A stretch of DNA of 64,000 bases from Thermodesulfovibrionia bacterium (GTDB lineage Bacteria; Nitrospirota; Thermodesulfovibrionia; UBA6902). This document shows, in pieces, positions 41,342 to 64,000 of this stretch (within the stretch, counting starts at the first letter, position 1; each line of letters opens with the position of its first letter). Both the position numbers and the translations under genes were made by a program. The notes under the pieces were generated by a model. That model saw only the letters and a program-made list of their open reading frames with translations. It was not told the DNA's origin and did not search any database. The stretch spans positions 7,241 to 71,240 of the forward strand of contig CAMYND010000009.1 of assembly GCA_947259645.1 (NCBI GenBank), read 5' to 3'.

Positions 41342-41609
41342 TAAAATTATATTAGATGATCCTGCGCATTACATGCAGTAGCCAAAAAAGCGATTACATA
41401 TTCTGTAAACAGATTTCCTGACTCAGTATAGCTCAATGTCACATATCAAAGCTCAAATGCCAAATGAATGTCAAAATCTTAAGTTTTGATCAGACAAAGA
41501 CTAATAATAACGTGTAACATATGTGCCTGGATCGTACCGGGATGTGACATCTCTAATTCGTGAACAAGCTGGGGGCCACACAACAAATTATGTTGAAGGA
41601 GATAACATT

Positions 41610-49038: not shown

Positions 49039-49233
49039 AACTTTTTCAGGACTTTCTCCCCCCATTTATTCAACGTAGGAAAAATTAACACGAGCTGTTT
49101 ATACCTGATACCGGCATGTTCCACAACTGAGAACATTGCCTGGCATTGAATCATGCGGCATAAGGGTGATATGTTCATCGGGTTTATCAGCTTGGGACAG
49201 AATAAAATAATCAATAATATAGGAGTCAATTAC

Positions 49234-50409
49234 ATGATGTTAACAAAACAAAAGTTTATTTCCATGATGGCAGGTATATTTATACTTACGCTGTTATCGC
49301 AGTTAGCTTATGGGCATGGAATGTCTGAAGCAGAGAGACAGGCGATTATAGGAGGCGGCAATCTGAGATATCTGTGGATTGGGGCGACCCATATGCTGAC
49401 TGGCTACGATCACTTGATGTTTGTTTTCGGCATTATCTTTTTTCTGACGAACTTCCGTGATATTGTGAAGTATGTGACTGCCTTTACCCTGGGTCACAGT
49501 GTCACGCTGATTTATGCCACTTATAACGGCATACAGTTAAACTATTTTCTGATTGATGCGGTTATTGCCTTGAGTGTGTGCTACATAGCCTTTGCCAATC
49601 TTGACGGCTTCCGCAAATATCTTTCAATCAAACCACCGAACATGATGCTGATGATCATTGGTCTCGGCCTGATTCATGGCTTTGGTTTATCCACCCGGTT
49701 ACAGGCATTGCCATTAAGTGAAGATAGTCTGTTGCTGAATATTATTTCATTTAATGCAGGCATTGAACTAGGGCAGATTTCGGCACTTGCAGCCATGTTG
49801 GTGCTTGTTGCTGTGTGGCGAAAATCTCAGTCATTCGGTACTCACAGCAGGATTGCAAACTATTCGTTGATTATGTTTGGCCTGCTGTTGTTTTTGGTTC
49901 AGACACACGGCTATTCACACAGCAGCCCGTCTGAAGAACTTACTGCCAGTGCTGAACCGTCTCCGGGAATCATTGCTGCTGACGTGGTTGCTTCGACCGG
50001 AATTCCTGAAGAATCTCAACCATCTCAGTGGAAAGATACGATCACCATAACGATTCCTGCCAGAAGTGGCAAGGAGTATAAATTCCATCTCGTGCAGGGT
50101 GCAGTGCTTGATTACTCGTGGAAGACAGACAGCGAAAAGCTGTATTATGATTTTCACGGTGAACCAAAAGGTGATAAAACAGGTTATTTCGAGAGCTTTA
50201 AGACGAATACCGACAACCAGGCAAAAGGTTCTTTAACCGCTACCTTTGAAGGAACTCATGGGTGGTACTGGGAAAACAAGAGTCCATTGCCTGTTAATGT
50301 CGTATTGCAAACCAGAGGCACCTATCAAATGGTAGCTGCAAAGAAGGAGTTAAAAGATGACTCATTAATTGAAACCCCTAATGCTAAAACTCGCGATAGC
50401 ATTTATTAA
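49234..50409 (+). CDS. HupE/UreJ-family Ni/Co transporter-like membrane domain fused to a ~190-aa C-terminal soluble domain of unknown function
   Basis: AGGAG RBS before ATGATG 49234. HGMSEAE...HMLTGYDHLMFVFGIIFF and later GFGLS...ELGQ segments resemble HupE/UreJ. The beta-rich C-terminal half has no recognised motif. Confidence 0.5.
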   Translation: MMLTKQKFISMMAGIFILTLLSQLAYGHGMSEAERQAIIGGGNLRYLWIGATHMLTGYDHLMFVFGIIFFLTNFRDIVKYVTAFTLGHSVTLIYATYNGIQLNYFLIDAVIALSVCYIAFANLDGFRKYLSIKPPNMMLMIIGLGLIHGFGLSTRLQALPLSEDSLLLNIISFNAGIELGQISALAAMLVLVAVWRKSQSFGTHSRIANYSLIMFGLLLFLVQTHGYSHSSPSEELTASAEPSPGIIAADVVASTGIPEESQPSQWKDTITITIPARSGKEYKFHLVQGAVLDYSWKTDSEKLYYDFHGEPKGDKTGYFESFKTNTDNQAKGSLTATFEGTHGWYWENKSPLPVNVVLQTRGTYQMVAAKKELKDDSLIETPNAKTRDSIY

Positions 50410-51214: not shown

Positions 51215-51553
51215 ATGGCGTTAGGCTGGTTTGAAGTTGAAAAGGCACCAAATGGACAATATTATTTTAATTTAAAAGCAGGAAATGCAGAAACGATATT
51301 ATTCAGTGAGCAATATACAACGATGGATGGGTGCAATAATGGGATAGCATCTGTTCAATCTAATAGTGGTGAAGAAGCGAATTACGAACGGAAAGAATCT
51401 AACAAAGGCAAGCCTCATTTTGTTCTAAAGGCTAAGAATCACCAGGTAATCGGCCATAGTGAAAAGTATGAGAGTGCAAGTGGTATGGAAAATGGGATTA
51501 AGTCAGTAATGACTAATGGGTCTACTTCAACCATTAAAGATAAAACTACATAA
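51215..51553 (+). CDS. YegP-like (DUF1508) tandem-repeat protein
   Basis: Two repeats: GWFEVEKAPNGQYYFNLKAGNAETILFSEQYTTMDGCNNGIASV and HFVLKAKNHQVIGHSEKYESASGMENGIKSV. Confidence 0.65.
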   Translation: MALGWFEVEKAPNGQYYFNLKAGNAETILFSEQYTTMDGCNNGIASVQSNSGEEANYERKESNKGKPHFVLKAKNHQVIGHSEKYESASGMENGIKSVMTNGSTSTIKDKTT

Positions 51554-51575
51554 AAGCATCACATGTTTATTCTTC

Positions 51576-51608
51576 GGGCAGGGTCAGGAGTGGCTCTGCC
51601 TTTTTTAT
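51576..51608 (+). terminator. Rho-independent terminator after the yegP-like gene (palindromic element copy B)
   Basis: GGCAGGG-tcaggagtgg-CTCTGCC (7-bp stem with a G.U pair) followed by TTTTTTAT. Confidence 0.6.
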
Positions 51609-51835
51609 AGACTTAAACTGGCAATTTGCAACTTCAGTGTCACTGCTGAGTATACACAATTAGATGGAGCCGTTATTTTTAGATTGAAGCAGGATTATTG
51701 ACTTGAAGATTAAATCAATAATTATATAACAGAATTAAATTGTTGGTATTTTATGCTCTAAAAGTCGTACAATTTTGTGTTATCTTGGGCTTCTAATTTA
51801 ATCAAGAAGGATGGACATCATACCTGGAGGATACA

Positions 51836-52369
51836 ATGGCTACTTTTAAGGATCGTATTATTCGAGCTGCTAAACTGGATGTTCACCTGTACGAGGAAGT
51901 TGAGGCTGACAAGGAGGCAATGAGTCAAGCCATGGGGGTTGTTATTCTCTCCAGTTTAGCAGCCGGGATAGGAAGTATTGCAATAGGAGGCATTGGCGGG
52001 CTTTTAATAGGAACCATCTCAGCTCTTATAGGGTGGTATGTCTGGGCATATCTCACTTACTTTATTGGTACAAAAGTCCTTCCAGAGCCACAGACCAGAG
52101 CAGACCATGCTGAGTTATTACGCACTATCGGGTTTGCAAGCTCTCCTGGCTTGATTCGAGTATTGGGCATCATTCCTGGGCTGGCAGGAGTGGTTTTTAT
52201 AGGTGCCTCTATTTGGATGCTGGTGGCAATGGTGATTGCGGTCAGACAAGCTCTTGATTATAAGAGCACCGTACGCGCTGTAGGAGTTTGTGCGATTGGC
52301 TGGATTATTCAAGCAGTAATCCTCGCGTTAGTGTTTGCTATTTTTGGTGGTCCCGCAAAACCTGTCTAA
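51836..52369 (+). CDS. Yip1-domain membrane protein
   Basis: Soluble N-terminal segment, then five TM helices with Gly-rich packing. Length and topology fit the Yip1/DUF1282 family. Confidence 0.4.
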   Translation: MATFKDRIIRAAKLDVHLYEEVEADKEAMSQAMGVVILSSLAAGIGSIAIGGIGGLLIGTISALIGWYVWAYLTYFIGTKVLPEPQTRADHAELLRTIGFASSPGLIRVLGIIPGLAGVVFIGASIWMLVAMVIAVRQALDYKSTVRAVGVCAIGWIIQAVILALVFAIFGGPAKPV

Positions 52370-52475
52370 TTACAGAATAGGAAAGTTCAAGAGCGGAGAA
52401 AATTGAGGCATGGTCATTGTGAAAGCAATAAGTTCATCGTTGATTCAAAACGTTAAGAAACAGGTGCAAGCATCA

Positions 52476-54932
52476 TTAAGTCCCCTCTACCTTCACCGTA
52501 TTAATAGGATGCTCTCCATTTGAAGACAGGCGTGTGAGCATGTTTATTCTGGCATGGGGAAAGTGAGTTGGTACGAAGACCGTTCCTTCTGGCACATCGT
52601 CGGAGAGGGCAGCCTTGAGAAATACTGAGCCCTGTCGCGATGAGACCTTAACGTGGCTGTTGTCCGCGATGTCATATTTTTTCGCGTCTTCTTCATTGAT
52701 CTCCAAAAGAGCTTCCGACACAACAAGGTCAAGTGATTTTGAACTGGTAGACATGCTCCCGGAGTGCTGGAGAATATCTCTGATCACGAGTTTAAAGGGG
52801 TATTCTTTGTCTGCTTCTTCTCCCGGCCTGAATTCGACAGGATGAAAAGTTCTCTGAACAGAGACAGGATCCGCAGGACTGCCTGCATCCCCGATTTCTT
52901 CCTTAACAGCAGCGAGATCTCTTATCCCGACATCTTTGCCCATGGAGAGGGCAAGATTTTTCAGGATCATCCAGTCAGGCATGGACTGGCCGGTCGCGTC
53001 AGCAAGTTTATATACTGTCTGGTGAGTGCCTTCAGCGTTAATGAAGGTGCCGTCCTTTTCTGCCCAGCTTGAAGCCGGAAGCACAACATTAGCAAGTTTT
53101 GCTGTCTCGGTCATGAAAATATCCTGTACAACGAGAAAATCCAGGGATTTTAATTTAGCCATCACTTTGGAGCTGTCCGGAAAAGTCGTCACAGGATCCT
53201 CCCCCATAATATAGAGGGCTTTTACGGAGTTGTCCTCATAGAGCATCTTTACAATATCTTTGTCAGATGGTTGCATGGGTCTGACGCCCATATTATAAAG
53301 ACCATAGGTATTTGAGTATTCAGCAGGGACCTGGAGTGAATCAGGCTCGTCGCCGAGAAGATTAATGAGGTTTGCAGCAGCAAGTACTGTATCCAGTCCT
53401 TTTGTGTTTTCTGAAGTACTGACTGAAAGGGATATCATTCTGCTCTTTGCATTGCCAATGGACTCTGCTGCGGCTATAATTTCCTCTTCACTGATCCCTG
53501 TTATTTTTGAGACGTTTTCAGGTGTGTAGTTCTTCAGAGTTGACTGAAGTGACGAGAACTCAGGAATGGCTGATGCAGCGCTCTTATCGTATAAGCCTTT
53601 ATCCAGTATTACCTTTGTTAATCCATTAACAAGCGCAAGGCTTGTTCCGTCCTTGATTTCAAGCCAATCAGTGCTGTGCCGGGTGAGTTTTGTTTCCCGG
53701 GAATCAGCTACTATAAGCTTGCTGCCTGCTCTCATTGCCTCGAGGATGTTAATTCCATATACCGGGTGGGTTACGCTTATATCTGATTCAAGAATCAGAA
53801 TGACCTCTTTCCCTGCGGGAGCGTTAAGGCTTATGGGGTGATTCTTCTGGCCGAATGCTTTTTCCCATACTTTTTGCACTCCGCCATATCCAAAGGCCGC
53901 GGATGAGTCAAGGTTGTTTGTGCCGACCACGTTCTTCATGAATTTCTGAAGCACATAATTGTCTTCATTCGTGCAGCGGGGAGAACCGATCGCGCCTATT
54001 GACGAGGCACTGGAATTTTTTGAGATCTTCTCAAGGTTTTTTGCAACGTAGGAGAGGGCATCTTCCCATGATACGCTTTTAAACTCATCGCCTTCCTTAA
54101 TGAGCGGTGTCTTGAGGCGCTTTTCACTATAGATATAATCAATGCCGAATCTGCCGCGTCCGCAGAGGTTTCCGTCATTTACTCCTGTTCCCTGTTTTCC
54201 TCTGGACCTGAGAATTTTTCCCTCCCTCATGCCGAGATGGAGCGTGCAGCCAACGCCGCAGAAGGGACAGATGGTGCTTTTCTCCTCAAGAAACCATGAG
54301 CGTGAGGTAAATTTGTAGGGTTTGCTCAAGATCGCTCCGGTTGGACAAATATCAAGGCATTGCCCGCAGTAGTCACACTCGAGTATTTCGCCAAAAGCAG
54401 GCTGAACAACCGTTGGGAACCCCCTGCCGATCAGTCCCAGGGCACCTCTTCCCTGATGGTCTCTGCAGATTCGTACGCACTTTCCGCAAAGGATGCAGCG
54501 CCGTGACGTAAGTTCAATTAACGGGCCCCGGATGTCTGATTTCGTCTCTTTTCTGGACCGGATAAACCGTGTGTCAGGTTTGCCGTATTCATAGGCGAGG
54601 TCCTGGAGGTCACATTCCCCAGCCTTGTCACATTCAGGACAGTCAAGGGGATGATGGACCAGGAGGAGTTCTATTACTGTCTGGCGCTGTTTCCTTAATT
54701 TTGGTGTGTCTGTCTGAATGACCATTCCGTCAGCAGCAGGGGAAGAGCATGCTGCAAGAAGACGGGCCTGACCCTCTACTTCAACAATGCAGAGCCTGCA
54801 TCCCCCGTAAGGCCTGAGCCTCTTGTCGTAGCACAAATTCGGGATATAAATATCATTTTGCAAAGCAGCTTCCAGAATGGTGCAACCCTGTTCTGCCTGG
54901 ATTTTCTTGTTGTTTATCGTGAGATTCATCAT
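52476..54932 (-). CDS. molybdopterin-oxidoreductase-fold subunit, FdhA/NuoG-like (N-terminal 2Fe-2S, His-ligated 4Fe-4S, 2x 4Fe-4S and MopB cluster); catalytic Sec/Cys apparently absent
   Basis: CYDKRLRPYGGCRLC (2Fe-2S). HHPLDCPECDKAGECD. CILCGKCVRIC and CDYCGQCLDICP. CPFCGVGC (MopB FS0). C-terminal molybdopterin-dinucleotide-binding-like domain. Where FdhF has GTNNVDCCARV-U-HGPS, this protein has GTNNLDSSAAFGYGGV. Confidence 0.6.
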   Translation of the reverse strand: MMNLTINNKKIQAEQGCTILEAALQNDIYIPNLCYDKRLRPYGGCRLCIVEVEGQARLLAACSSPAADGMVIQTDTPKLRKQRQTVIELLLVHHPLDCPECDKAGECDLQDLAYEYGKPDTRFIRSRKETKSDIRGPLIELTSRRCILCGKCVRICRDHQGRGALGLIGRGFPTVVQPAFGEILECDYCGQCLDICPTGAILSKPYKFTSRSWFLEEKSTICPFCGVGCTLHLGMREGKILRSRGKQGTGVNDGNLCGRGRFGIDYIYSEKRLKTPLIKEGDEFKSVSWEDALSYVAKNLEKISKNSSASSIGAIGSPRCTNEDNYVLQKFMKNVVGTNNLDSSAAFGYGGVQKVWEKAFGQKNHPISLNAPAGKEVILILESDISVTHPVYGINILEAMRAGSKLIVADSRETKLTRHSTDWLEIKDGTSLALVNGLTKVILDKGLYDKSAASAIPEFSSLQSTLKNYTPENVSKITGISEEEIIAAAESIGNAKSRMISLSVSTSENTKGLDTVLAAANLINLLGDEPDSLQVPAEYSNTYGLYNMGVRPMQPSDKDIVKMLYEDNSVKALYIMGEDPVTTFPDSSKVMAKLKSLDFLVVQDIFMTETAKLANVVLPASSWAEKDGTFINAEGTHQTVYKLADATGQSMPDWMILKNLALSMGKDVGIRDLAAVKEEIGDAGSPADPVSVQRTFHPVEFRPGEEADKEYPFKLVIRDILQHSGSMSTSSKSLDLVVSEALLEINEEDAKKYDIADNSHVKVSSRQGSVFLKAALSDDVPEGTVFVPTHFPHARINMLTRLSSNGEHPINTVKVEGT

Positions 54933-56782
54933 TATTTGTCACCTCCCTCTTTAACTGCCGAGACAGGTTTTTCTTTCCGGATGGCCGGCTTTACCTCAAT
55001 TGAGGCGAATTTGCAGGTGTCATAGCATGACCTGCACTGTATGCACAGTTCCTGAATGATCCTGTGGGCCTTTTTCTTTTCTCCGACGATGGCTTCCTGC
55101 GGACATGCCCGCAGGCAGGCACCGCATCCCTTGCACAGTTCTTCGGAAATATGAAATGAGCAGAGGTCGCTGCATATTCCTGCTTCACACCAATGATCTT
55201 TAATGTGTGCTTCATATTCATGTTTGAAATATCGTATCGTGGAAAGGACGGGATTCGGGGCTGTCTGGCCGAGTCCGCAAAGAGATGTACTGATAATGTC
55301 CCTGCTCAGGTCTTCAAGCTTTTCAATATCGCCTTCCTGTCCTCTGCCCTCTGTTATGTCGGTGAGCATATCGAGCATTACTCTTGTTCCGACGCGGCAG
55401 GGGGTGCATTTCCCGCATGATTCATCGGCGGTAAACTCAAGAAAAAACTTTGCCGTGCTCACCATGCAAGTGTCTTCGTCCATTACTACCATTCCTCCTG
55501 AACCCATGATAGCACCGGTCTTGACAATGTCTTCGTAGGTTACGGGGATGTCGATATGGTCCTCGGGGATACAGCCTCCTGAGGGGCCGCCCATTTGCAC
55601 GGACTTGAACTTTTTCTTTTTGTTTGTCATCCCGCCACCGATATCATAGATAATCGTTTTCAGAGGGGTTCCCATGGGGACTTCGACGAGCCCGACGTTT
55701 TTTATATCCCCTGTAAGGGCAAATACCTTTGTGCCGGTACTCTTTTCAGTCCCCAGTGACTTGTACCATTCAGCCCCGTTCAGGATGGTTGGGGCTATCT
55801 GTGCCAGGGTCTCAACGTTGTTCAGGACTGATGGCTTGTCCCACAGGCCCTTATGGGCAGGGAAGGGAGGACGTGGTCTTGGCATACCGCGCTTTCCTTC
55901 AATGGAACGCATCAGCGCTGTTTCTTCACCGCATACAAATGCCCCTGCACCCAGGTATATTTCAAGGTCAAAGTTAAATCCGCTTCCCAAAATGTTTTCA
56001 CCAAGAAGACCATTCTCACGACAAAGCTTAATCGCTGTTTCAAGCCTCGCTACTGCCAGCGGATACTCGGCTCTGACGTAGATTACGCCTTTGCTCGCGC
56101 CTATCGCCTTTGCGCCGATTAACATGCCTTCGATTACTGAGTGGGGATCAGATTCCATAACAGACCTGTCCATGAATGCCCCGGGGTCACCTTCGTCACC
56201 GTTGCACAGCATGAACTTCTGGTCAGCTACTGACTTTGAGGCGAACTCCCACTTTAACCCTGTCGGGAAACCTGCTCCTCCCCGTCCCCTGATTCCTGCG
56301 TCTTTAATAGTCTGTATTATATCTTCCGGGGTCATTTCCGTTAAGGCCTTACCAGCAGCCATATACCCGTCTCGTGCGATGTACTCATCCAGGCTGTCAG
56401 GATCAATGAGCCCCTTATTCCTCAGGACCCTCAATACCTGGTGCTTGAAGAACGGGATATCATTCATTAATGGAATGGCTGCCCTCTTCTCAGGGTCCTT
56501 GAACATCAGTTTTTCATAGGGCCGGCCTTTCAGGAAGTGCTCTTCAACAAGTTTCGGGACTTCCGCGACAGTCAATTTCTGATAAAAGATCTCTTCAGGG
56601 TACACCAGCATTACAGGCCCTTCAGCACAGAATCCGTTGCATCCGGTCAGCACGATCTTTACCTCGTCGGCAAGGCCCTGCTTTTCCAGCTCTTCCTGAA
56701 GGGCATCTTTAACCTTGGGGGTCCCGCTTGCAACGCATCCGGTCCCGGCACACATGAGTAAATTGGCACGATATTTTTCCAT
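54932..56782 (-). CDS. NuoF/HndC-like NAD(P)H-binding flavoprotein subunit with N-terminal thioredoxin-like 2Fe-2S domain and C-terminal 2x[4Fe-4S] ferredoxin domain
   Basis: GRGGAGFPTGLKWEF (FMN/NADH site). ESCGKCTPCRVGT (N3 cluster). CKGCGACLRACP and CIQCRSCYDTC ferredoxin motifs. N-terminal CAGTGC...C. Confidence 0.8.
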   Translation of the reverse strand: MEKYRANLLMCAGTGCVASGTPKVKDALQEELEKQGLADEVKIVLTGCNGFCAEGPVMLVYPEEIFYQKLTVAEVPKLVEEHFLKGRPYEKLMFKDPEKRAAIPLMNDIPFFKHQVLRVLRNKGLIDPDSLDEYIARDGYMAAGKALTEMTPEDIIQTIKDAGIRGRGGAGFPTGLKWEFASKSVADQKFMLCNGDEGDPGAFMDRSVMESDPHSVIEGMLIGAKAIGASKGVIYVRAEYPLAVARLETAIKLCRENGLLGENILGSGFNFDLEIYLGAGAFVCGEETALMRSIEGKRGMPRPRPPFPAHKGLWDKPSVLNNVETLAQIAPTILNGAEWYKSLGTEKSTGTKVFALTGDIKNVGLVEVPMGTPLKTIIYDIGGGMTNKKKKFKSVQMGGPSGGCIPEDHIDIPVTYEDIVKTGAIMGSGGMVVMDEDTCMVSTAKFFLEFTADESCGKCTPCRVGTRVMLDMLTDITEGRGQEGDIEKLEDLSRDIISTSLCGLGQTAPNPVLSTIRYFKHEYEAHIKDHWCEAGICSDLCSFHISEELCKGCGACLRACPQEAIVGEKKKAHRIIQELCIQCRSCYDTCKFASIEVKPAIRKEKPVSAVKEGGDK

Positions 56783-56913
56783 ATCTTTTCCCTCTATCTA
56801 TAAAGTAGTATTCTGATCCTCTGTTTTCTGAAAAATATCAATCTCCTGAATGTAATCAGGATAATAAACGTTGTGTATTGTTTTTGTCTTTACGCTGACA
56901 GCTGAAAGCTGAA

Positions 56914-57297
56914 TTAATACGTTGTCTCACTCCCCATCACGAGGGCATATTTCTCTACAGGTGTGCCGCCGAGGACATGATCCTTAAAGATCTCCTTCAG
57001 TTTATCAACGGTAACATCGCCATATTTTACCGGTGTGTTATCAGCTATTTCCACGGTCATCATCGGTTCACGGGCACAGAGTCCGGCGCAGCCTGAGGTG
57101 GTGGTAATAACATCATTAACTTTAGATTCTGTGATTTCATCTATCAGGGCTGTCATGATATCCCGCGCTCCCGCTGCTATTCCGCAGGTTCCCATATGAA
57201 CGGTAACTTTTGCCCTGTATCCGCCTTCTCTCAGGTTGAATGTTGCCTGCTGTTTTTCTTTTATTTTCTTTAAATCAGCGATCGTTAACTTTGCCAT
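56914..57297 (-). CDS. HndB-like small thioredoxin-fold [2Fe-2S] ferredoxin
   Basis: 127 aa. HMGTCGIAAGA...SGCAGLCAREP Cys pattern matches the NuoE/HndB-type 2Fe-2S fold. Confidence 0.55.
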   Translation of the reverse strand: MAKLTIADLKKIKEKQQATFNLREGGYRAKVTVHMGTCGIAAGARDIMTALIDEITESKVNDVITTTSGCAGLCAREPMMTVEIADNTPVKYGDVTVDKLKEIFKDHVLGGTPVEKYALVMGSETTY

Positions 57298-57381
57298 TTG
57301 AGTCCTCCTGTTATTGCTGTGCCCGTTGTTTCAGTTACTAAAACGTGCATGAATCAGTAACACAGATTGCCGAACCTTTTA

Positions 57382-58254
57382 TCATGCGTATTCTTCCAGA
57401 ACACCCTGAACCTTTTTTGGTGTCATTGCACCGTATGTTTCTTCATCCACGACAATAACAGGCGCAAGACCGCATGCCCCGAGGCACCGTACTGTTTCGA
57501 TAGAGAATTTTTTGTCTTCCGTAACCTCTCCAACATCTATTTTGAGCGTTGATTTGAATTTTTCCAGTACTTCCTCTACTCTCTTTACGTAGCACGCTGT
57601 GCCGAGACATACCCTGACATTATGGTCCCCTCTGGGTTTCATGGTGAAATAGGAATAAAATGTCACGATACTGTGAATTTCTGCCGGAGACATATTGAGC
57701 CCCTTCGCGACCCGTTTCTGCACAACAGGGGGCAAATATCCGACGATTGCCTGACAGCGCTGGAGAACAGGGATTGAACTTCCCGGCTTGTTCCTGTACT
57801 CCTTTATGACCCGGTCAATCTCCTGTCTCATGGACGGGGGAAATTCTTCCTCTTTTTTCTCTTCTTCAACAGCAGCCTTGCCCTTTATCCACTGCACTGA
57901 CCGTTCTGTTACGTCCAGAAGCACTGCCGGGGTAAAGGGTTTCGGCACATAATCGATTATTCCGGCTTCAAGGGCATCTTTAATCGTATCCTGTGACGGG
58001 TACCCCGTGATGACAACGATACCGGTGTCAGGCCTGTTCTGCCTGATCCACTTAATAAGGGTGATACCATCTACTTCAGGCATCTTAAGGTCAGTGAATA
58101 CGAGGTCATAGGGGGTCTGCTCCATCTTCAGTATCGCCTCTTTGCCTCCCAGAACTCCTTCGATATTGTACCCTTCGGACCTGAGTACCGATTCGCAGCT
58201 TCTGATAATGACGGGCTCATCGTCAACAACCAGAATTTTAATATCATCTGCCAT
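57382..58254 (-). CDS. response-regulator receiver domain fused to NuoE/HndA-like [2Fe-2S] subunit
   Basis: N-terminal CheY-like domain (ILVVDDEPVII...DLVFTDLKMPEVDG...KPF). C-terminal NuoE signature (IPVLQRCQAIVGYLPP...VCLGTACYVKRVEEV...VRCLGACGLAPV). Confidence 0.75.
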   Translation of the reverse strand: MADDIKILVVDDEPVIIRSCESVLRSEGYNIEGVLGGKEAILKMEQTPYDLVFTDLKMPEVDGITLIKWIRQNRPDTGIVVITGYPSQDTIKDALEAGIIDYVPKPFTPAVLLDVTERSVQWIKGKAAVEEEKKEEEFPPSMRQEIDRVIKEYRNKPGSSIPVLQRCQAIVGYLPPVVQKRVAKGLNMSPAEIHSIVTFYSYFTMKPRGDHNVRVCLGTACYVKRVEEVLEKFKSTLKIDVGEVTEDKKFSIETVRCLGACGLAPVIVVDEETYGAMTPKKVQGVLEEYA

Positions 58255-58426
58255 AAGAAGCCTCCATTGCGCTGTTTATAGGTGGACGTTTAAATGAAAA
58301 GGCAGGCTTTACACGTATTGAGAAACACCCGGGACAATTATGTGCATGGACCTGTTTATTCATATTTGCTGTTCAGTGTACCTGTTACCAATTTCTGTCT
58401 TATCCTTCGATCTGAGAGACAAAACC

Positions 58427-59191
58427 CTATTTTGCTAAGGGGAATACTTTTGCCAGCCAAAGAAGCCATCCTTCTGATAGATGGTCCTTAAGAAGTGCTG
58501 CCATGACGTCATTCGCCTTCGTATTGATCTCTCTGAGCTCTCCATTCATGGGAGAAAGCAGGCTTTGTGATTTGCCGCTGCTTGTATAAATATTCGCAAA
58601 AACCTGACCCGCATCAAGGGTATCCAGATCTTTAACAAACTCTACATACATTAAATCTCCTGCAAGCATCCAGTATCTCAGGTCACAGCCGACTTCCCAC
58701 AGTCCGTCGCCGGAGGGTCGTGCCCAGGTGCCTTCTTTATAAAAAATAACAGGGTTTTCCTGGTCCCGCAGGGGTGATACAAAGTCCCTGAAATCGTCAA
58801 TAAAGGCCTGCCGCAATATCCAGCCCCGGGTGTCAAAAACCTTCTGGGCGACATTAAGCATAAAGTCAGGGGTAAAGGGTTTTTCAATGTATTCCGCTGC
58901 TCCCAGTTTTGACGATTCCTTGGCATCTTCCAGAGTCGGGTAACCCGTAATTATCACTACGTCTGTTTTCGGCTTGATGACACGGGCTTCCTTAAGCACT
59001 TCTAGCCCGCTCATTCCCGGCATTTTCACATCGGATATCAGGAGGTCAAAATCTTCTTTTGAGAGTTTATTGAGGGCATCTTCTCCGTTATCTACCGTGG
59101 AAATGCTGTAACCTTCAGCTCCGAGAATTCTCTTGCAGCTTAAGGTTACAATTGGATCATCATCGACTACTAGTATTCTCCCTTTTTCCAT
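58427..59191 (-). CDS. response-regulator receiver domain fused to a GcvH-like (lipoyl/biotinyl-type hybrid barrel) domain
   Basis: N-terminal CheY-like domain (ILVVDDDPIV...DLLISDVKMPGMSG...KPF). The C-terminal about 120 aa aligns by eye with glycine-cleavage H protein (FYKEGTW...GLWEVGCD...AGDLMYVEF...YTSSGKSQSLLSPMNGELREIN...EGWLLWLA), including a Lys at the lipoyl-Lys position. Confidence 0.5.
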   Translation of the reverse strand: MEKGRILVVDDDPIVTLSCKRILGAEGYSISTVDNGEDALNKLSKEDFDLLISDVKMPGMSGLEVLKEARVIKPKTDVVIITGYPTLEDAKESSKLGAAEYIEKPFTPDFMLNVAQKVFDTRGWILRQAFIDDFRDFVSPLRDQENPVIFYKEGTWARPSGDGLWEVGCDLRYWMLAGDLMYVEFVKDLDTLDAGQVFANIYTSSGKSQSLLSPMNGELREINTKANDVMAALLKDHLSEGWLLWLAKVFPLAK

Positions 59192-59295
59192 TACGCCCCC
59201 TCCTGGCTGTTATGACTCTCCGATTACATCAGACTGGTGCACCCATAACCGGACAGCCTTTAATTGGGTCTATAGTATCATATTATTTCTATAAT

Positions 59296-59820
59296 TTAGC
59301 CAGCACTTATAGCGTCTTTAATAATTTTTATTACGTCCGGCGTATTAATCGGGATATTGCCCAGCTCTTTTTTTATTTCAGATGTATCTAAAACGTATGT
59401 TTTATCATCTCTTTTGTGTTCGAAGAAAAAATCAATTTCAGGATTAGATACTATCAGAACGATCAGTGTTTTTCCAACATCTCCCATGGGTTTCCTGTCT
59501 ATGTGGTCATGCTGAAAAGATACGGATATGGAGGTGCCCCCGCCTTTTTGAGAGGTCACCTGTATGTCCCCCCTGCACTCCCGTGCAGCCTGGGCGAGCA
59601 TCGGGATGCCAAGCCCCACTTTTCTCGTCGTCCTTGTAGTGTAAAAGGGATCGCAGGCATGTTCCAGCAGTTCCGCGTCCATCCCCTGTCCGTTGTCTTT
59701 AATGTCTATAGTCAGGATATTGTCTTTGACACTTTCCCTCAGCCTGATCTCAATTCTGGACGCCCCCGCTGTTATCGAGTTTTCAACAATATCAAGGATA
59801 TGTAATGATAGATCTTCCAT
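59296..59820 (-). CDS. GHKL-type ATPase domain protein (histidine-kinase-like / anti-sigma-factor-like Ser kinase), no HisKA or sensor domain
   Basis: N-box region ILDIVENSITAG. G1 DNGQGM. G2 GLGIPM. C-terminal about 70 aa of unknown function. Confidence 0.6.
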   Translation of the reverse strand: MEDLSLHILDIVENSITAGASRIEIRLRESVKDNILTIDIKDNGQGMDAELLEHACDPFYTTRTTRKVGLGIPMLAQAARECRGDIQVTSQKGGGTSISVSFQHDHIDRKPMGDVGKTLIVLIVSNPEIDFFFEHKRDDKTYVLDTSEIKKELGNIPINTPDVIKIIKDAISAG

Positions 59821-59934
59821 AATTGTGATTTATCTTGCCACAGACTTGCACAGACTTAAAGACATGATACTATCTCTATTACTGTTTAGTGCTTAACCTG
59901 CTTTTGTCTGTGTTAGTCAGTGGCTGAATAATCT

Positions 59935-60675
59935 TCACTCCCATTCCACCTTTCTTCCATCTTTGTTTTTCATTGCCATTCTTATCTCTGTAATTGACGG
60001 GGCCTGCAGGGAGAAATTTGAAATTTTTTTTGCAATGTCTGCCGGATAGTGGGCGTCAGAGGACGCTATCCAGGTATATGAGCTGTAGTCTTTGAACAGG
60101 CTCTCAGCCTTTTCCCTTGTCATATTCGGGGACATTTCAAGGGCGTCAAAGTTCATCTGATCCGGGATAAATCCCAGCTGCGACAGTATACTGAAGGCCC
60201 CCCTGTCAATATGTGAGGCTATGGCCAGACCGCCCAGATCGTGGATGGTCTCTATTATTGTTTGAGCAGGCAGATCAGTGGCGGCTATGAGCATCCGATT
60301 GTTCATGCCTAACACTTCATCCTGTTCATTGACAATTACCTGCTCCCCGAATCTGCTTACATCATTGGTCCCGGGAAGAAGGTTTTTATATACAATTTCC
60401 TGTAGATCTAAAATACGATCGTCATCAAAGATCCCCAGGATATGTGCTTCTTCTGAAGATGCTACCTCCATACCGGCAAGAACAGTAAGGTTGAACTGCG
60501 CTGCGGATTTTCTTGCTGCCTGCACATTTTCAGCAGAATTGTGGTCAGTAATAGCGATGATATCCAGACCCTTTTGTGAAGCGGTCTCAATAATTGAAGC
60601 AGGGGTCATATCCAGTTCAGCGCAGGGGGAAAGGCAGGTATGTATATGCAGGTCAGCTTTATATTGTTTCAACAT
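59935..60675 (-). CDS. PHP-domain metal-dependent phosphoesterase
   Basis: DLHIHTCLSPCA and IIAITDHNS His motifs of the PHP superfamily. Confidence 0.7.
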   Translation of the reverse strand: MLKQYKADLHIHTCLSPCAELDMTPASIIETASQKGLDIIAITDHNSAENVQAARKSAAQFNLTVLAGMEVASSEEAHILGIFDDDRILDLQEIVYKNLLPGTNDVSRFGEQVIVNEQDEVLGMNNRMLIAATDLPAQTIIETIHDLGGLAIASHIDRGAFSILSQLGFIPDQMNFDALEMSPNMTREKAESLFKDYSSYTWIASSDAHYPADIAKKISNFSLQAPSITEIRMAMKNKDGRKVEWE

Positions 60676-60708
60676 AAGAGGTTTTCAGGATTCTGTTCAG
60701 CAGCTCTT

Positions 60709-61044
60709 TTACCTGTCAAGCAGTTGATAAAGCTTTCCTGCTGCTTCAAATGCCGGCAGGGGTGTTGTCATGACAGTTACTTTTTCGGCCCGGGCCTTCT
60801 CTATGACGTCTTCCGCCGGTTTTCTGTTTCCCACAATAATTATTCCGGCCAGGCCTTTCATATCAGCTACAGCGATAATATTCAGGTGAGTCTGAAGCGT
60901 AATCCATATATTCCCTACATTGCTGTTGGCCATAACATCAGACAGGAGATCACTGACATATGCTCCCGTGACTTCATTATTCATGCTTTCTTCACAGGTT
61001 ACTATTTCCAGCGACAAGTCTTTGATCAGATCCTGAAGATTCAT
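60709..61044 (-). CDS. DRTGG-domain protein
   Basis: About 110 aa with a core resembling the DRTGG domain (IAVADMKGLAGIIIVGN...). Confidence 0.5.
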   Translation of the reverse strand: MNLQDLIKDLSLEIVTCEESMNNEVTGAYVSDLLSDVMANSNVGNIWITLQTHLNIIAVADMKGLAGIIIVGNRKPAEDVIEKARAEKVTVMTTPLPAFEAAGKLYQLLDR

Positions 61045-61085
61045 AACATGACCCCTTTTGTAGTATTTCTCAGTATGAAATATGT

Positions 61086-61523
61086 CTACGGGATATTTAA
61101 AACCATCTCCACTGTCGTGCCTTCGCCCACAACAGACTCAATATTAAATTCATCTGAGTTCTTTTTCATGTTCGGGAGCCCCATTCCTGCTCCCCAGCCC
61201 ATTTCCCGCACCCACTCGGGAGCGGTCGAGTACCCCTCCTGCATTGCCTGCTCGATATTTTCAATGCCGGGCCCCATGTCTTCAATCCTGATCCGGATGG
61301 AAGACGGGCCAATAAAGTACAGCAGTCGTGCTGCTGCCGCGTATATAATTACATTGATTTCCGCTTCAAAGGTGGCGATAGCGGCACGCCGTATGATTTC
61401 TTCAGCAACACCGAGATCAGTGAGCGTCCGTTTCAGCTCGCCAGAGGCCTCACCGGCAGTGGCAAAGTTTCCGCCTACGAGCTGAAAGCTGCCTTCTATT
61501 GTTTTGTCACTATTCAGTGGCAT
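61086..61523 (-). CDS. GHKL-type ATPase, anti-sigma-factor/RsbW-like Ser kinase
   Basis: EAEINVIIYA N-box-like. DMGPGI (G1). GAGMGL (G2). About 145 aa, like SpoIIAB/RsbW. Confidence 0.6.
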   Translation of the reverse strand: MPLNSDKTIEGSFQLVGGNFATAGEASGELKRTLTDLGVAEEIIRRAAIATFEAEINVIIYAAAARLLYFIGPSSIRIRIEDMGPGIENIEQAMQEGYSTAPEWVREMGWGAGMGLPNMKKNSDEFNIESVVGEGTTVEMVLNIP

Positions 61524-61527
61524 CTGC

Positions 61528-61878
61528 TTACTTGTCCAGACATCCCGGTAACCCCTCTTTAAACAGCCTTCCTGAGGCGGTGTACATGCAGAAGGATGTG
61601 CTTAACAGGGGGATTTTTTTCTTTTGAGCCAGGTCGATAGTTTCTTTGTCCGGCTTCTTATCCAGGACAAAAACAATGGATTTGATCCCCGCTATTTCAG
61701 CGGTACGGATAACATGAGGCTGGGTGAGGCTGGTGATAAGCAGTGAGTTGGGTGTGTGGTAATACAGGACAGCGCTCATCATATCAGCACTGCAGGCGCT
61801 GTGAATATCTATCTCTGAATTCTCAGGATTTGCGATGATAGATGCTTCAAGAATTTTAGCTATCTCTTTTAAAATCAT
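61528..61878 (-). CDS. DRTGG-domain protein (second copy)
   Basis: About 116 aa paralogous to 60709-61044 (LITSLTQPHVIRTAEIAGIKSIVFV). Its stop overlaps the downstream GHKL gene. Confidence 0.5.
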   Translation of the reverse strand: MILKEIAKILEASIIANPENSEIDIHSACSADMMSAVLYYHTPNSLLITSLTQPHVIRTAEIAGIKSIVFVLDKKPDKETIDLAQKKKIPLLSTSFCMYTASGRLFKEGLPGCLDK

Positions 61879-61901
61879 ATGATTAGCATCTCAGATGCGC
61901 T

Positions 61902-62267
61902 TTAGTCCGATGGTCCGAATACTTCCTGAACCGCTTTAAGCAGCGTGTCGGGTGTAAAAGGCTTTTCTATAAAGTTATATGCACCGACTCTCAGCGCCTG
62001 AACAGCCGTATCAACTGTGCTGTAGCCTGTTACCATAACAACTTTCGTCTCCGGCCAGTTCTCCTTTATTTTGCTGAGCACCTCCATGCCGTCCATGTCC
62101 GGCATTTTCAGGTCAAGCAGAACCAGTGCGAAGGTTTCCTTTTCAAGGCACGCTATCCCTTCTTTGCCGCTGGCCGTGAGCGTCACATCATATCCTTCCG
62201 GGGTCAGGGTCCTGTCGCAGCTTGTCCTGACTATGGCTTCATCATCTACTACGAGAATTTTTTTCAT
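61902..62267 (-). CDS. single-domain response regulator (CheY-like receiver)
   Basis: ILVVDDEAIV...LVLLDLKMPDMDG...KPF. Start overlaps the upstream kinase stop (ATGA). Confidence 0.8.
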   Translation of the reverse strand: MKKILVVDDEAIVRTSCDRTLTPEGYDVTLTASGKEGIACLEKETFALVLLDLKMPDMDGMEVLSKIKENWPETKVVMVTGYSTVDTAVQALRVGAYNFIEKPFTPDTLLKAVQEVFGPSD

Positions 62268-63850
62268 GATTCTAAGGGTAGTCTAACAAAAAAGCTGGTG
62301 CCTTTACCAATGGTGCTCTTGACCTTTATATGGCCGCCCAGGTGCTTCACAATTCCATGACTTACAGAGAGACCGAGCCCTGTTCCTTTCCCGACCGGCT
62401 TGGTTGTGAAAAAGGGTTCAAAGAGCTTTGGCATGTCCTCTTCCTTTATTCCGCACCCTTCGTCTGTAAACTCTATTTCAACATAGGGCTTTTCATTTTC
62501 CAATGCCCCCCTCGTTCTAATGGTGATATTCCCCCGGCCATTCATGGCGTCAGCAGCATTAATGAACATGTTCAGAAAAATCTGCTGGAACTGAGAACCA
62601 TCGCCTACAACGACAAACTGCTTGTCCGCGAAATCCGGGTTGAATTTTATATGGTGAAACTTTGCCTGGTTCTGCACCATGAATATTGTCCTGTTCAGCA
62701 CCTCATTAATGCTTACCTTGCCTTTCTCAGAAGGTGTCGCACGGGCGAAGGTGAGAAGGTTTTTGATGATTTTTGCGCATCGTTCAGACTGTTCAATAAT
62801 AATATCGAGGTCCTGTGATTCGGTGCTTTCCGGGGGAAACCTCTTCTTTAACAGGTGAGCAAATGTGACGACTCCGGTTAAAGGGTTGTTAATTTCATGG
62901 GCCACCCCCGCGGCCATTCTTCCCAGAGATGCCAGCTTTTCAGTCTGCATGAGGTTGGCATGGGTCTTCTGGATTTCATCTGTTTTCTTTTCAATTTCTA
63001 CTTCAAGGGTCTGGGTCCATCGTTCCCGCTGGTCTCTGGCCCCTTTCAGGTCACGGATCATCGAGTTGAATGTTCGCGCCAATTTGCCGATTTCATCATC
63101 TGATCTCACCTGAACAGTGTTCTCGAGGTTCCCGCCGGAAACCTTCTCCATTCCCTGGACAAGCTCATTGACCGGTTTGGAAACAATTTTATAGAGGATG
63201 ATTCCAAGAAAGATCGATACGGCAAGAACAAACATGATAACGTACGCGGTCAGGGCGAGCCCCTGCTTTAAGAGGGCCTCATCCAGAACAGCAAGGGAGA
63301 GGTCTGCCTTCACAAAGCCGAGTATTTCCGGGCTTTCCGGATGGGCGTGACAGGCTGCCGTGGAACATTCGGGGGCGTTTAAAATCGATTCTACCATGTG
63401 CAGCGAGGTTTTACCTTTTTCGTCTCTGTGGACGAACAGTTTTCTGGTTTCTGTCAGCAATTCCCCTGATTCACTGTTGGAATGACATCCGGTGCAGGCT
63501 ATAGATGTTCTGTCAACAGAGTTCCCTGCTTTTTCTGATTTTGATGAAAATACAATGTTGCCGCGATGGTCGTAGATCTGAACGCCCTGAACACCTTCCG
63601 GCGTGCTGAGGGTGTCCAGTACGCGCTGGGTTTCTTCCCTGTCAAATATAAGCATGCTGCGGCGTGTGCTGGCTTTCGTGAAGTTTACAAAAGACCTGCC
63701 GTACTTGGTCGCAATCGACAGAACATCTTTTTCCTGCTTTTGAAGAATGGCATACCAGAAGATGAGGCTCAGTATAATCATCAGGAGGCCGATGGCGATA
63801 ATAAGCTTTGCAGCTATGGATTTATCGGGATTGCGGAGAATATTTTTCAT
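62264..63850 (-). CDS. sensor histidine kinase with a periplasmic di-heme c-type cytochrome sensor domain
   Basis: TM1. Periplasmic domain with two CxxCH motifs (CTGCH, CSTAACH). TM2, HAMP-like linker and HisKA H-box (AAGVAHEINNPL). HATPase_c G-boxes (DEGCGI, GTGLGLS). Confidence 0.75.
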   Translation of the reverse strand: MKNILRNPDKSIAAKLIIAIGLLMIILSLIFWYAILQKQEKDVLSIATKYGRSFVNFTKASTRRSMLIFDREETQRVLDTLSTPEGVQGVQIYDHRGNIVFSSKSEKAGNSVDRTSIACTGCHSNSESGELLTETRKLFVHRDEKGKTSLHMVESILNAPECSTAACHAHPESPEILGFVKADLSLAVLDEALLKQGLALTAYVIMFVLAVSIFLGIILYKIVSKPVNELVQGMEKVSGGNLENTVQVRSDDEIGKLARTFNSMIRDLKGARDQRERWTQTLEVEIEKKTDEIQKTHANLMQTEKLASLGRMAAGVAHEINNPLTGVVTFAHLLKKRFPPESTESQDLDIIIEQSERCAKIIKNLLTFARATPSEKGKVSINEVLNRTIFMVQNQAKFHHIKFNPDFADKQFVVVGDGSQFQQIFLNMFINAADAMNGRGNITIRTRGALENEKPYVEIEFTDEGCGIKEEDMPKLFEPFFTTKPVGKGTGLGLSVSHGIVKHLGGHIKVKSTIGKGTSFFVRLPLES

Positions 63851-64000
63851 ATCCGTGTATTATAGGTGCGTTTTTGTTTTTTTAAAAGAATTAAATAATA
63901 AAATTTCAGTTATTTATAAATGTTCATTTTGCAATGTAGCATTCTCAAAATTGCCGGTAAGCATAATTCCGGGGTATTGCTGATAAATAAGTTAAAACTA

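Follow-up and report, generated by a model that had tools for sequence, protein, structure and literature searches.

Why would the [2Fe-2S] subunit of a predicted electron-bifurcating enzyme begin with a complete response-regulator receiver? The question is raised by a gene in a 64,000-nucleotide stretch of DNA from a Thermodesulfovibrionia bacterium (Nitrospirota; contig CAMYND010000009.1, positions 7,241 to 71,240), which we call the window. An earlier note, made from the sequence alone, had described the product as a receiver fused to a NuoE/HndA-type [2Fe-2S] subunit, and Pfam indeed finds both domains in one open reading frame (ORF). The gene stands in an operon that is, by its predicted proteins, of the Bfu/HydABC type. 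We propose, at a probability of about 0.55, that the receiver is functional and would modulate the assembled Bfu enzyme post-translationally.

The fused gene and its domains

The gene and its parts are arranged as follows.

57382..58254, minus strand: REC-BfuC (REC-NuoE/HydC) fusion gene, 290 amino acids, stop codon within the span
57913..58236, minus strand: receiver (CheY-like, REC) domain, residues 7-114, from Pfam PF00072, AlphaFold2 (AF2) and Foldseek
57820..57912, minus strand: extended α5 and Glu/Lys-rich flexible linker, residues 115-145, from AF2
57388..57819, minus strand: NuoE/HydC/BfuC domain, residues 146-289, from Pfam PF01257, PDB sequence matches and Foldseek

The minus-strand translation contains no internal stop, and it begins at an ATG with GGAGG, a good ribosome-binding site, 6 nt on its 5′ side. 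The plus-strand translation of the same interval is full of stops, and therefore the earlier reader must have read the reverse complement.

The confirmation by hidden Markov models that the earlier note called for leaves both domains far above their Pfam cut-offs. PF00072 (Response_reg) matches residues 7 to 114 over profile positions 1–108 of 111, with an E-value of 2.9e-29 and 101.9 bits against a cut-off of 30.2. The acidic pocket DD and the phospho-acceptor in DLVFTDLKMP, both singled out earlier, appear in the translation as D11 and D12 (VVDDEP) and as D55, whose codon is 58090–58092; also present are T83 (VVITG) and Y102 and K105 (YVPKPF). The AF2 model, computed for a single chain from a 60-sequence alignment, gives this half the (βα)5 fold, with strands at residues 6–10, 30–34, 51–54, 78–83 and 101–104 and helices at 14–26, 37–46, 63–73, 88–96 and 109–127, and Foldseek matches it to Spo0F with a target-normalised TM-score (TMt) of 0.92. 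This is a complete receiver that could apparently be phosphorylated. Another candidate for this half, a flavodoxin-like redox domain, is ruled out by the PF00072 profile match together with the presence of all the phospho-chemistry residues.

The second half is matched by PF01257 (2Fe-2S_thioredx) from residue 146 to residue 289, over profile positions 1–144 of 145 (E-value 6.3e-49, 166 bits, cut-off 24.8), and residues 138–289 are matched by the HoxE, NuoE and FDH-gamma models of NCBIfam. The ligands of the [2Fe-2S] cluster are C216, C221, C257 and C261. Its best PDB sequence matches are 7t2r_C, 8a6t_C and 7q4v_C, and in Foldseek it aligns with whole HydC/BfuC/NuoE chains at TMt 0.82–0.89 (7t2r_C, 8a6t_C, 7q4v_C, 8oh5_A), covering 152 of the 152 residues of 7t2r_C at the upper of these values. 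In the model (mean pLDDT 83.8, pTM 0.44), the receiver ends in a long α5 at 109–127 and is followed by a helical bundle at 140–199 and a thioredoxin-like domain at 211–289; residues 127–136 are predicted to be disordered (pLDDT below 50). The linker is 25 to 44 residues long across homologues. No solved chain in the PDB, searched by Foldseek and by sequence, spans both halves (query-normalised TM-score, TMq, at most 0.49). Since the NuoE half is a complete HydC and no solved chain has both halves, residues 1–137 are purely an extra N-terminal part, joined by a flexible tether to a complete BfuC.

We found no description of a REC–NuoE fusion, and no published characterisation of its function, in the literature searched, which left most subscription journals uncovered; the earlier note had likewise called the function uncharacterised. 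Two genomic surveys of Bfu/HydABC-type enzymes, when searched for the word "receiver", gave no match (PMC9304861, PMC11406978), and neither did one of them for "response regulator" (PMC11406978). The automatic names of these fusions in databases are "response regulator" or "NAD(P)H-dependent oxidoreductase subunit E".

Recurrence and conservation of the fusion

Could an adjacent receiver gene and NuoE gene simply have been joined by an error of sequencing or assembly, or by a missed stop codon? Homologous receiver and NuoE sequences are in fact separate, adjacent genes in two distant loci described below (L085/L086), and two genes separated by an unnoticed stop would have undone the original description. 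However, the ORF in the window is continuous, and a fused ORF of 286–300 amino acids recurs in more than 238 homologues from independent NCBI, JGI, ENA and Logan assemblies. The fusion is also found in a 3.17-Mb contig and, full-length, in about 19 species-representative genomes, which were scanned with peptide patterns from a single query that reach close relatives only. The chance of an artefact is practically nil, and we regard it as refuted by the recurrence and by the continuous ORF.

The 120 best homologues, 73–100% identical to the query, all have both domains, and those with names are metagenome-assembled genomes (MAGs) of Nitrospirota, Nitrospiraceae or Thermodesulfovibrionales. The species-representative genomes belong to Nitrospirota/Thermodesulfovibrionia or "Ca. 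Sulfobium", with one MAG labelled Deferribacteres. An alignment of 238 homologues falls into two clades, with mean identities to the query of about 79% and about 54%; the second, as a profile of distant members shows, is a large group of fusions of about 286 amino acids named Thermodesulfovibrionales or Nitrospirae. Absence of the phospho-acceptor on alignment was the other outcome that the earlier note had held to be fatal. D55 is present and, like D11, D12, T83, Y102, K105 and the four cysteines, is essentially invariant in the 238 homologues.

We searched 1.84 billion 50%-identity representatives exhaustively with HMMER and obtained 313 proteins at E ≤ 1e-30. Among the top 150 of these, the REC-then-NuoE order occurs in 14 clusters, down to about 30% identity, besides tandem and truncated variants. 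D55 is kept in 11 of the 13 distant 50%-identity clusters that were aligned, and the cysteines are invariant. Neither half is degraded, and strong purifying selection acts on both.

Some relatives depart from the two-domain plan. P0121, P0122 and P0130 consist of a receiver and the N-terminal helical part of NuoE, without the cluster cysteines, and in some cases one polypeptide contains this unit twice. Such proteins might be derivatives of the fusion with a decoy or regulatory role. P0259 (301 amino acids) has a full NuoE domain, in the usual place of a receiver, followed by an OmpR-type winged-helix DNA-binding domain (Trans_reg_C); it may be a transcription factor that senses redox state, or else an artefact of gene calling. 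L077, a "Deltaproteobacteria" match to residues 8–172, was considered as a fusion in another phylum but is an ordinary NtrC-type sigma54 activator.

The most informative of the distant fusions is P0378, about 33% identical to that of the window. In its locus, L083, the REC–NuoE gene is followed by a NuoF-like gene and then by a gene for 340 amino acids combining a receiver with a minimal BfuA (Fer2 and Fer4_Nqo3). The NuoF neighbour is 80–82% identical to proteins named Dehalococcoidia, Dehalococcoidales or Chloroflexi; taxonomy is assigned among the distant fusion groups for the L083 type only, by way of this neighbour. Within L083, the NuoE receiver and the BfuA receiver share 82% identity, but both are only 29–38% identical to the receiver of the window. 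In L085/L086, contigs that carry one of the named proteins matched by the NuoF neighbour, the separate receiver and NuoE genes are each 68% identical to the matching half of P0378. In a neighbour-joining tree of NuoE domains, which is crude and carries no support values, the fused proteins fall into at least four groups among unfused ones. Fusion of a receiver to Bfu subunits thus seems to have arisen more than once, and such independent recurrence argues for a selected function, adaptive rather than accidental.

The receiver–BfuA fusions of these Dehalococcoidia-like loci are 333–340 amino acids long and lie at 8007–9029 in L083 and 7941–8942 in L085/L086. The L085/L086 operon starts (921–2861) with a histidine kinase of 646 residues that resembles a sensory hydrogenase, having an [FeFe]-hydrogenase large-subunit domain as well as Fer4; a sigma54-dependent regulator comes next.

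Identity of the enzyme

To which enzyme does the fused subunit belong? Three genes downstream of the fusion bear on this question.

56914..57297, minus strand: HndB/HydD-like small thioredoxin-like [2Fe-2S] protein, 127 amino acids, with weak PF01257 and fdxn_Clost matches and a conserved position
54932..56782, minus strand: BfuB/HydB-type NuoF-like flavoprotein, 616 amino acids, with an N-terminal [2Fe-2S] domain, FMN/NADH site, N3-type 4Fe-4S region and C-terminal 2x[4Fe-4S]
52476..54932, minus strand: BfuA, FdhA/NuoG-like, 818 amino acids, with Fer2_4, NADH-G_4Fe-4S_3, Fer4_Nqo3, Molybdop_Fe4S4, Molybdopterin and Molydop_binding

Schut et al. defined the Bfu family by the domain set of BfuB and BfuC (PMC9304861). 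BfuB has the FMN-binding (IPR011538), SLBB (IPR019554), NuoF 4Fe-4S (IPR019575) and ferredoxin-type 4Fe-4S (IPR017896) domains, BfuC has IPR002023, and BfuA has at least a 2Fe-2S ferredoxin-type domain and 4Fe-4S ferredoxin-type domains; a catalytic domain or additional subunit serves the third substrate (PMC9304861). In Acetomicrobium mobile, BfuB also holds an extra [2Fe-2S] cluster, B2, with ligands C438, C476/Thr, H525, C531 and C536, of which the histidine is absent from non-bifurcating homologues (PMC9304861).

Two genes downstream of the fusion stands the gene for the NuoF-like partner, both in the window and at every related locus. Its product gives Pfam matches to PF01512 (162.7 bits), PF10589 (117.9 bits) and, at residues 544–600, the Fer4 families, with SLBB at 23.9 bits, slightly under the Pfam cut-off of 27. 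It scores 824 bits against 7t2r_B (HydB of the structurally characterised, bifurcating A. mobile NiFe-HydABCSL) and 803 bits against HydB of A. woodii. In the alignment to 7t2r_B, the B2 ligands C438, H525, C531 and C536 are kept, and position 476 is Thr, as in FeFe-type members. The BfuC domain is represented in the fusion by PF01257, and those of BfuA by Fer2_4, NADH-G_4Fe-4S_3 and Fer4_Nqo3. With this domain set and the B2 ligands in place, the three proteins belong, by the sequence definition, to the Bfu family. We therefore read the operon as a Bfu/HydABC-type BfuABC set, for which electron bifurcation is predicted. Neither the operon nor the 64-kb window encodes a second NuoE-type subunit, and so the fusion must be the NuoE-type subunit of the complex.

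The earlier assignment to an "NADH-dehydrogenase-like module" was thus right as to the NuoE-type subunit but too general, since the module is of Bfu/HydABC type and not a generic NADH dehydrogenase. Identity with the N-module of complex I was considered and set aside, as there are no membrane-arm nuo genes among the window ORFs examined and the NuoE, NuoF and NuoG equivalog models of NCBIfam all score below their cut-offs.

The third substrate is less readily assigned. BfuA has the domain order of FdsA and of Type 1 Fdh-Bfu enzymes, and its best PDB matches are FdsA-type chains. In the alignment, however, "AAFGYGG" (Gly-Tyr) replaces the "ARVCHSP" of Rhodobacter capsulatus FdsA, which contains the catalytic Cys386-His387, and 20 orthologous loci show a replacement of this kind. 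BfuA was rejected as a formate dehydrogenase because the Cys/Sec-His of the Mo/W site is absent and TIGR01591 reaches 467 bits against a cut-off of 666. The "AAFGY" motif, at residues 345–351, is conserved with minor substitutions in the orthologues examined, and paralogue sets have "ARTGF"; such conservation hints that the pterin-like domain may have a different role. The operon contains no hydrogenase or other catalytic gene for a third substrate. The analysis flags a conserved Bfu enzyme with no recognisable catalytic site in its BfuA.

The operon and its sensor kinase

The gene cluster occupies 52476–63850, with all twelve genes on the minus strand and the genes beyond the 52476 end on the other strand. 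Upstream of the fusion lie the following genes.

58427..59191, minus strand: REC and GcvH-like protein, 254 amino acids (PF00072 and PF01597)
59296..59820, minus strand: stand-alone HATPase_c protein (HisK-like GHKL ATPase without HisKA), 174 amino acids (Pfam, synteny)
59935..60675, minus strand: PHP-domain phosphoesterase, 246 amino acids (Pfam, synteny)
60709-61044, minus strand: DRTGG accessory gene (Pfam)
61086-61523, minus strand: HATPase_c_2 anti-sigma-kinase-like gene (Pfam)
61528-61878, minus strand: DRTGG accessory gene (Pfam)
61902..62267, minus strand: single-domain response regulator REC1, 121 amino acids, 42-46% identical to the other two receivers
62264..63850, minus strand: sensor histidine kinase, 528 amino acids, with transmembrane segment, extracytoplasmic loop, transmembrane segment, HAMP, HisKA and HATPase_c (Pfam)

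The two further receivers and the sensor kinase that the earlier note placed "immediately upstream" are all upstream and on the same strand, but only the REC–GcvH-like gene directly adjoins the fusion; five accessory genes separate it from REC1, and REC1 and the kinase are 3.6–5.6 kb away. The three receivers of the cluster are 35–46% identical to one another.

What would the kinase sense? Its extracytoplasmic loop has no Pfam match, and it carries the motifs CTGCH (CxxCH, residues 119–123) and CSTAACH (CxxxxCH, residues 162–168), both kept in 10 of 10 orthologues at 46–65% identity. This suggests that the loop is a periplasmic redox sensor domain with two covalently bound haems c. Given the two conserved haem-c motifs, the kinase probably reports the redox state of the periplasm, and it is probably the cognate kinase of the fusion receiver.

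The core order REC–GcvH, REC–NuoE, HndB, NuoF, NuoG-like is kept in 18 close loci, and the neighbourhood in clade 2 is alike. The REC–GcvH-like gene is directly upstream of the fusion in all close Nitrospirota loci, and the kinase with one or two single-domain receivers is found upstream of the core in related loci. In the A. mobile operon, "HydD", "HisK" and "HydP" are probably the counterparts of the HndB-like, HATPase_c and PHP genes, the equation of PHP with HydP being our own inference. HydD and HisK of A. mobile are outside the purified NiFe-HydABCSL holoenzyme (PMC9304861, PMC8880783).

The REC–GcvH-like partner was also considered as a carrier of lipoate. Most orthologues have Gln or Gly where the canonical Lys would stand, so that lipoylation of the domain is improbable, and the idea was rejected. 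REC–GcvH proteins occur in L001–L017 and L081/L082, with weaker relatives in L024–L080, and relatives at 30–35% identity are found in Ignavibacteria/Melioribacter, KSB1 and other genomes.

In the window, as in L003 and L017, the block DRTGG/HATPase_c_2/DRTGG/PHP/HATPase_c is placed upstream of the core, and in most other loci downstream of the NuoG-like gene. A deltaproteobacterial MAG (L019) has the same block next to an operon whose NuoE is unfused. The block behaves like a mobile cassette tied to Bfu-type operons (window 59296–61878 compared with L004–L016). In many related Nitrospirota genomes (L004, L005, L009–L012 and L015), a second set of NuoE/NuoF/NuoG-like paralogues, not fused and about 30%, 45% and 35% identical, lies in divergent orientation about 3–8 kb upstream of the fusion; the window ends before the equivalent position.

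A scan of 52000–64000 gave promoter and terminator counts of 24 and 18, not clearly above those of shuffled sequence (16.3 ± 4.5 and 13.3 ± 4.0), and no convincing minus-strand terminator inside the cluster. The one notable site, a 10/12 promoter-like match, lies just 5′ of the kinase start and is not used as evidence. The Rfam scan of 51500–64000 at E ≤ 0.1 returned no match, and hence no known riboswitch or leader is present in the intergenic gaps.

How might a receiver act on a predicted bifurcating enzyme?

In published models of these enzymes, the subunit that carries the receiver here is a mobile gate. It has been proposed that a HydC-in/HydC-out motion controls the passage of electrons to the ferredoxin branch (PMC10021017, PMC9304861), the C1 cluster in BfuC being the gate (PMC9304861). 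In the A. mobile dimer of pentamers, the two HydC subunits touch inside a "clamshell" (PMC8880783).

For the fusion, every step beyond an intact and conserved receiver is one that we infer. A histidine kinase would phosphorylate D55, the candidate here being the upstream haem-motif kinase, and the phosphorylation state of the tethered receiver would alter the activity of the assembled enzyme, with transcription unchanged. The most likely route would be a change in receiver dimerisation or docking that frees or restrains BfuC, whose thioredoxin-like domain would have to swing "in" and "out" to pass low-potential electrons toward ferredoxin. Since two BfuC copies adjoin in the homologous complex and the linkers are flexible over at least about 10 residues, the receivers could pair across the dimer. 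Depending on phosphorylation, a receiver could pair with its twin or dock on BfuB or BfuA, and either would change the freedom of BfuC. The REC–GcvH-like protein and REC1 may share the phosphoryl source, as branch outputs or as phosphate sinks. Three points make gating more plausible: BfuC/HydC is a mobile gate in the published models, HydC touches HydC in a solved complex, and the Dehalococcoidia-like contigs have an independent REC–NuoE fusion as well as REC–BfuA fusions. We take it as the likeliest working model, and consider its specific clamp or gating geometry rather doubtful.

A broader proposal is that a two-component phosphorelay acts directly on flavin-based bifurcation machinery. 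The receiver on BfuC, driven by a haem-c kinase, would switch the enzyme among coupled, uncoupled and idle states, and this solution would have evolved independently in Nitrospirota and Chloroflexota, with BfuA, too, joined to a receiver in Chloroflexota. We offer it tentatively, as a possibility. If it is true, the NADH/ferredoxin balance of the cytoplasm would be reset by redox conditions outside the cell, in a matter of seconds and with no need of transcription. A stronger version would have the whole catalytically "headless" NuoEFG-like complex now serving as a redox-sensing signalling device.

Several observations weigh against a receiver that modulates the enzyme. AF2 predicts no defined, fixed interface between the receiver and NuoE (pTM 0.44, disordered linker), and the D55 position is Tyr in one distant cluster (P0127) and Glu in another (P0128), so that phosphorylation is not universal in the wider family. 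Seven genes lie between the kinase and the fusion, and the kinases nearby are of different kinds in clade 2 and in the Dehalococcoidia type, so the cognate link is not fixed. The two GHKL ATPases, the PHP phosphoesterase and the two DRTGG proteins of the operon could dominate regulation. Lastly, BfuA lacks a recognisable catalytic site for a reaction to be regulated.

This last point also bears on the opposite direction of signalling. The [2Fe-2S] half, alone or in the BfuBC core, might sense the NADH/NAD+ and ferredoxin pools and thereby alter phosphorylation or dephosphorylation of the receiver, so that the fusion, as a phosphate sink or connector under redox control, would tune the REC1 and REC–GcvH branches; the complex could then be mainly a cytoplasmic redox sensor. 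The catalytic Cys-His is missing from BfuA in every orthologue examined, the operon is rich in signalling genes (kinase, three receivers, two GHKL ATPases, PHP, two DRTGG), the three receivers at 35–46% mutual identity share one cluster, and NuoE modules are used in regulatory proteins (P0259; P0121, P0122, P0130). We nevertheless think it unlikely. Receiver then NuoE is the usual grammar of receiver then output, BfuB retains every cofactor site of an active bifurcating enzyme and scores 824 bits against HydB, and the partner for the third substrate could be encoded elsewhere. Moreover, HydD, HisK and PHP genes also lie beside catalytically proven HydABC-type enzymes (PMC8880783), so a purely sensory complex is not implied.

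Might the receiver serve assembly or enzyme amount instead of activity? Many receivers work through protein–protein contacts, and this one could be a pseudo-receiver: a constitutive dimerisation or docking module, or a recruiter of the REC–GcvH-like, DRTGG and GHKL proteins. The lack of a predicted fixed intramolecular interface and the loss of the acceptor in P0127 and P0128 fit such a role. We judge it improbable, however, since the five phosphorylation residues and the Y102 switch are essentially invariant in the 238 homologues, which is hard to explain without phosphorylation, and since two further canonical receivers and a genuine HisKA kinase are conserved alongside it. Alternatively, phosphorylation could trigger release of the subunit from BfuB or its binding to BfuB, or RssB-type adaptor-mediated proteolysis, and so set the amount of enzyme, much as in the "assembly" option of the earlier note. 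The N-terminal helical bundle of NuoE, to which the receiver is attached, is near the HydB/HydA interface (PMC10021017), and the second, unfused NuoE/F/G set near the fusion in related genomes would in principle allow subunit exchange. Yet that set is only about 30% identical, and Pfam finds no protease or adaptor gene in the cluster. To our knowledge, the NuoE–NuoF interface is extensive and constitutive in all solved homologues, and we consider control of incorporation or stability very improbable. Modulation of the assembled enzyme by a phosphorylatable receiver is the reading that we retain.

Why does it matter? In anaerobes, Bfu/HydABC enzymes balance NADH, ferredoxin of low potential and a third redox couple against one another, and in the literature searched their regulation is discussed only in terms of neighbouring "regulatory" genes. 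A receiver inside the proposed gate subunit is a testable handle on post-translational control of bifurcation and on the contested movement of the HydC domain. It suggests that a sensor kinase may tune a Bfu enzyme directly rather than through gene expression. The finding would also tie a periplasmic haem-type kinase to cytoplasmic electron partitioning in Thermodesulfovibrionia, widespread subsurface sulfur-cycling bacteria.

Other features of the window

Three further genes, all on the plus strand, are recorded here. An ORF of 495 amino acids at 41523–43010 has two rhodanese-like stretches and cytochrome c554/c7-type multihaem domains, an unusual sulfur-transferase/cytochrome fusion. About 2 kb past the operon, 49153–50409 encodes a membrane protein of HupE/UreJ type (Ni/Co transporter-like) with a C-terminal extension of about 190 residues. 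A 673-residue ORF at 11355–13376 has no Pfam match at E ≤ 1e-5.

Comparison with known systems

The nearest solved relatives of the fused subunit are the HydC/BfuC chains of A. mobile (7T2R C), T. kivui (8A6T C), A. woodii (7Q4V C) and T. maritima (7P5H C), which are alike in fold and in the four cysteines over the C-terminal 150 residues, at 39–45% identity. The A. mobile operon also shares the HydD-like, HisK-like and PHP genes (PMC8880783). The solved and described HydCs, however, lack the N-terminal receiver and linker of about 137 residues, and BfuA in the window is FdhA/NuoG-like, without the catalytic Cys-His, instead of the hydrogenase of HydABC-type enzymes. In FdsABG (R. capsulatus, 6TG9/6TGA) and the Type 1 Fdh-Bfu enzymes, BfuA has the same order of 2Fe-2S, NuoG-type 4Fe-4S and Mo/W-bisPGD domains, and the NuoE domain of the window resembles FdsG; FdsB, in turn, lacks the extra N- and C-terminal FeS domains that BfuB of the window has. 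The N-module subunits NuoE, NuoF and NuoG of complex I are homologous and share cofactors, with NCBIfam scores just below the cut-offs. They differ in that NuoF of the window has extra FeS domains and the His ligand typical of Bfu, NuoE has a receiver, and no membrane-arm nuo genes are adjacent.

Sensory [FeFe]-hydrogenase (HydS/group C) systems have signalling genes beside the genes of a bifurcating enzyme, as is the case here. Group C3 hydrogenases with kinase domains have been described, and the neighbouring signalling proteins were treated as separate regulatory components, with no mention of a receiver–subunit fusion (PMC11406978). A histidine kinase of hydrogenase-like type likewise stands next to the receiver-bearing Bfu genes of the Dehalococcoidia-like relatives. 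In contrast to these systems, the window has its receiver inside a subunit of the enzyme, and its kinase carries haem-c motifs in place of an H-cluster domain.

From the side of signalling, the fusion shares with regulators of the CheB, PleD, RssB and NtrC1 types a canonical N-terminal receiver, a long α5 and a flexible linker to a C-terminal output, and its best receiver-containing PDB sequence matches are Aquifex NtrC-family proteins, aligned through the linker. In NtrC1 and DctD, the receiver dimer restrains the output until phosphorylation. The outputs of these regulators are DNA-binding, nucleotide-cyclase or methylesterase domains, whereas that of the fusion is a redox-cofactor subunit of a multi-subunit oxidoreductase. 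The novelty is thus of a limited kind, not categorical: a Bfu-type enzyme whose gate subunit is itself a response regulator.

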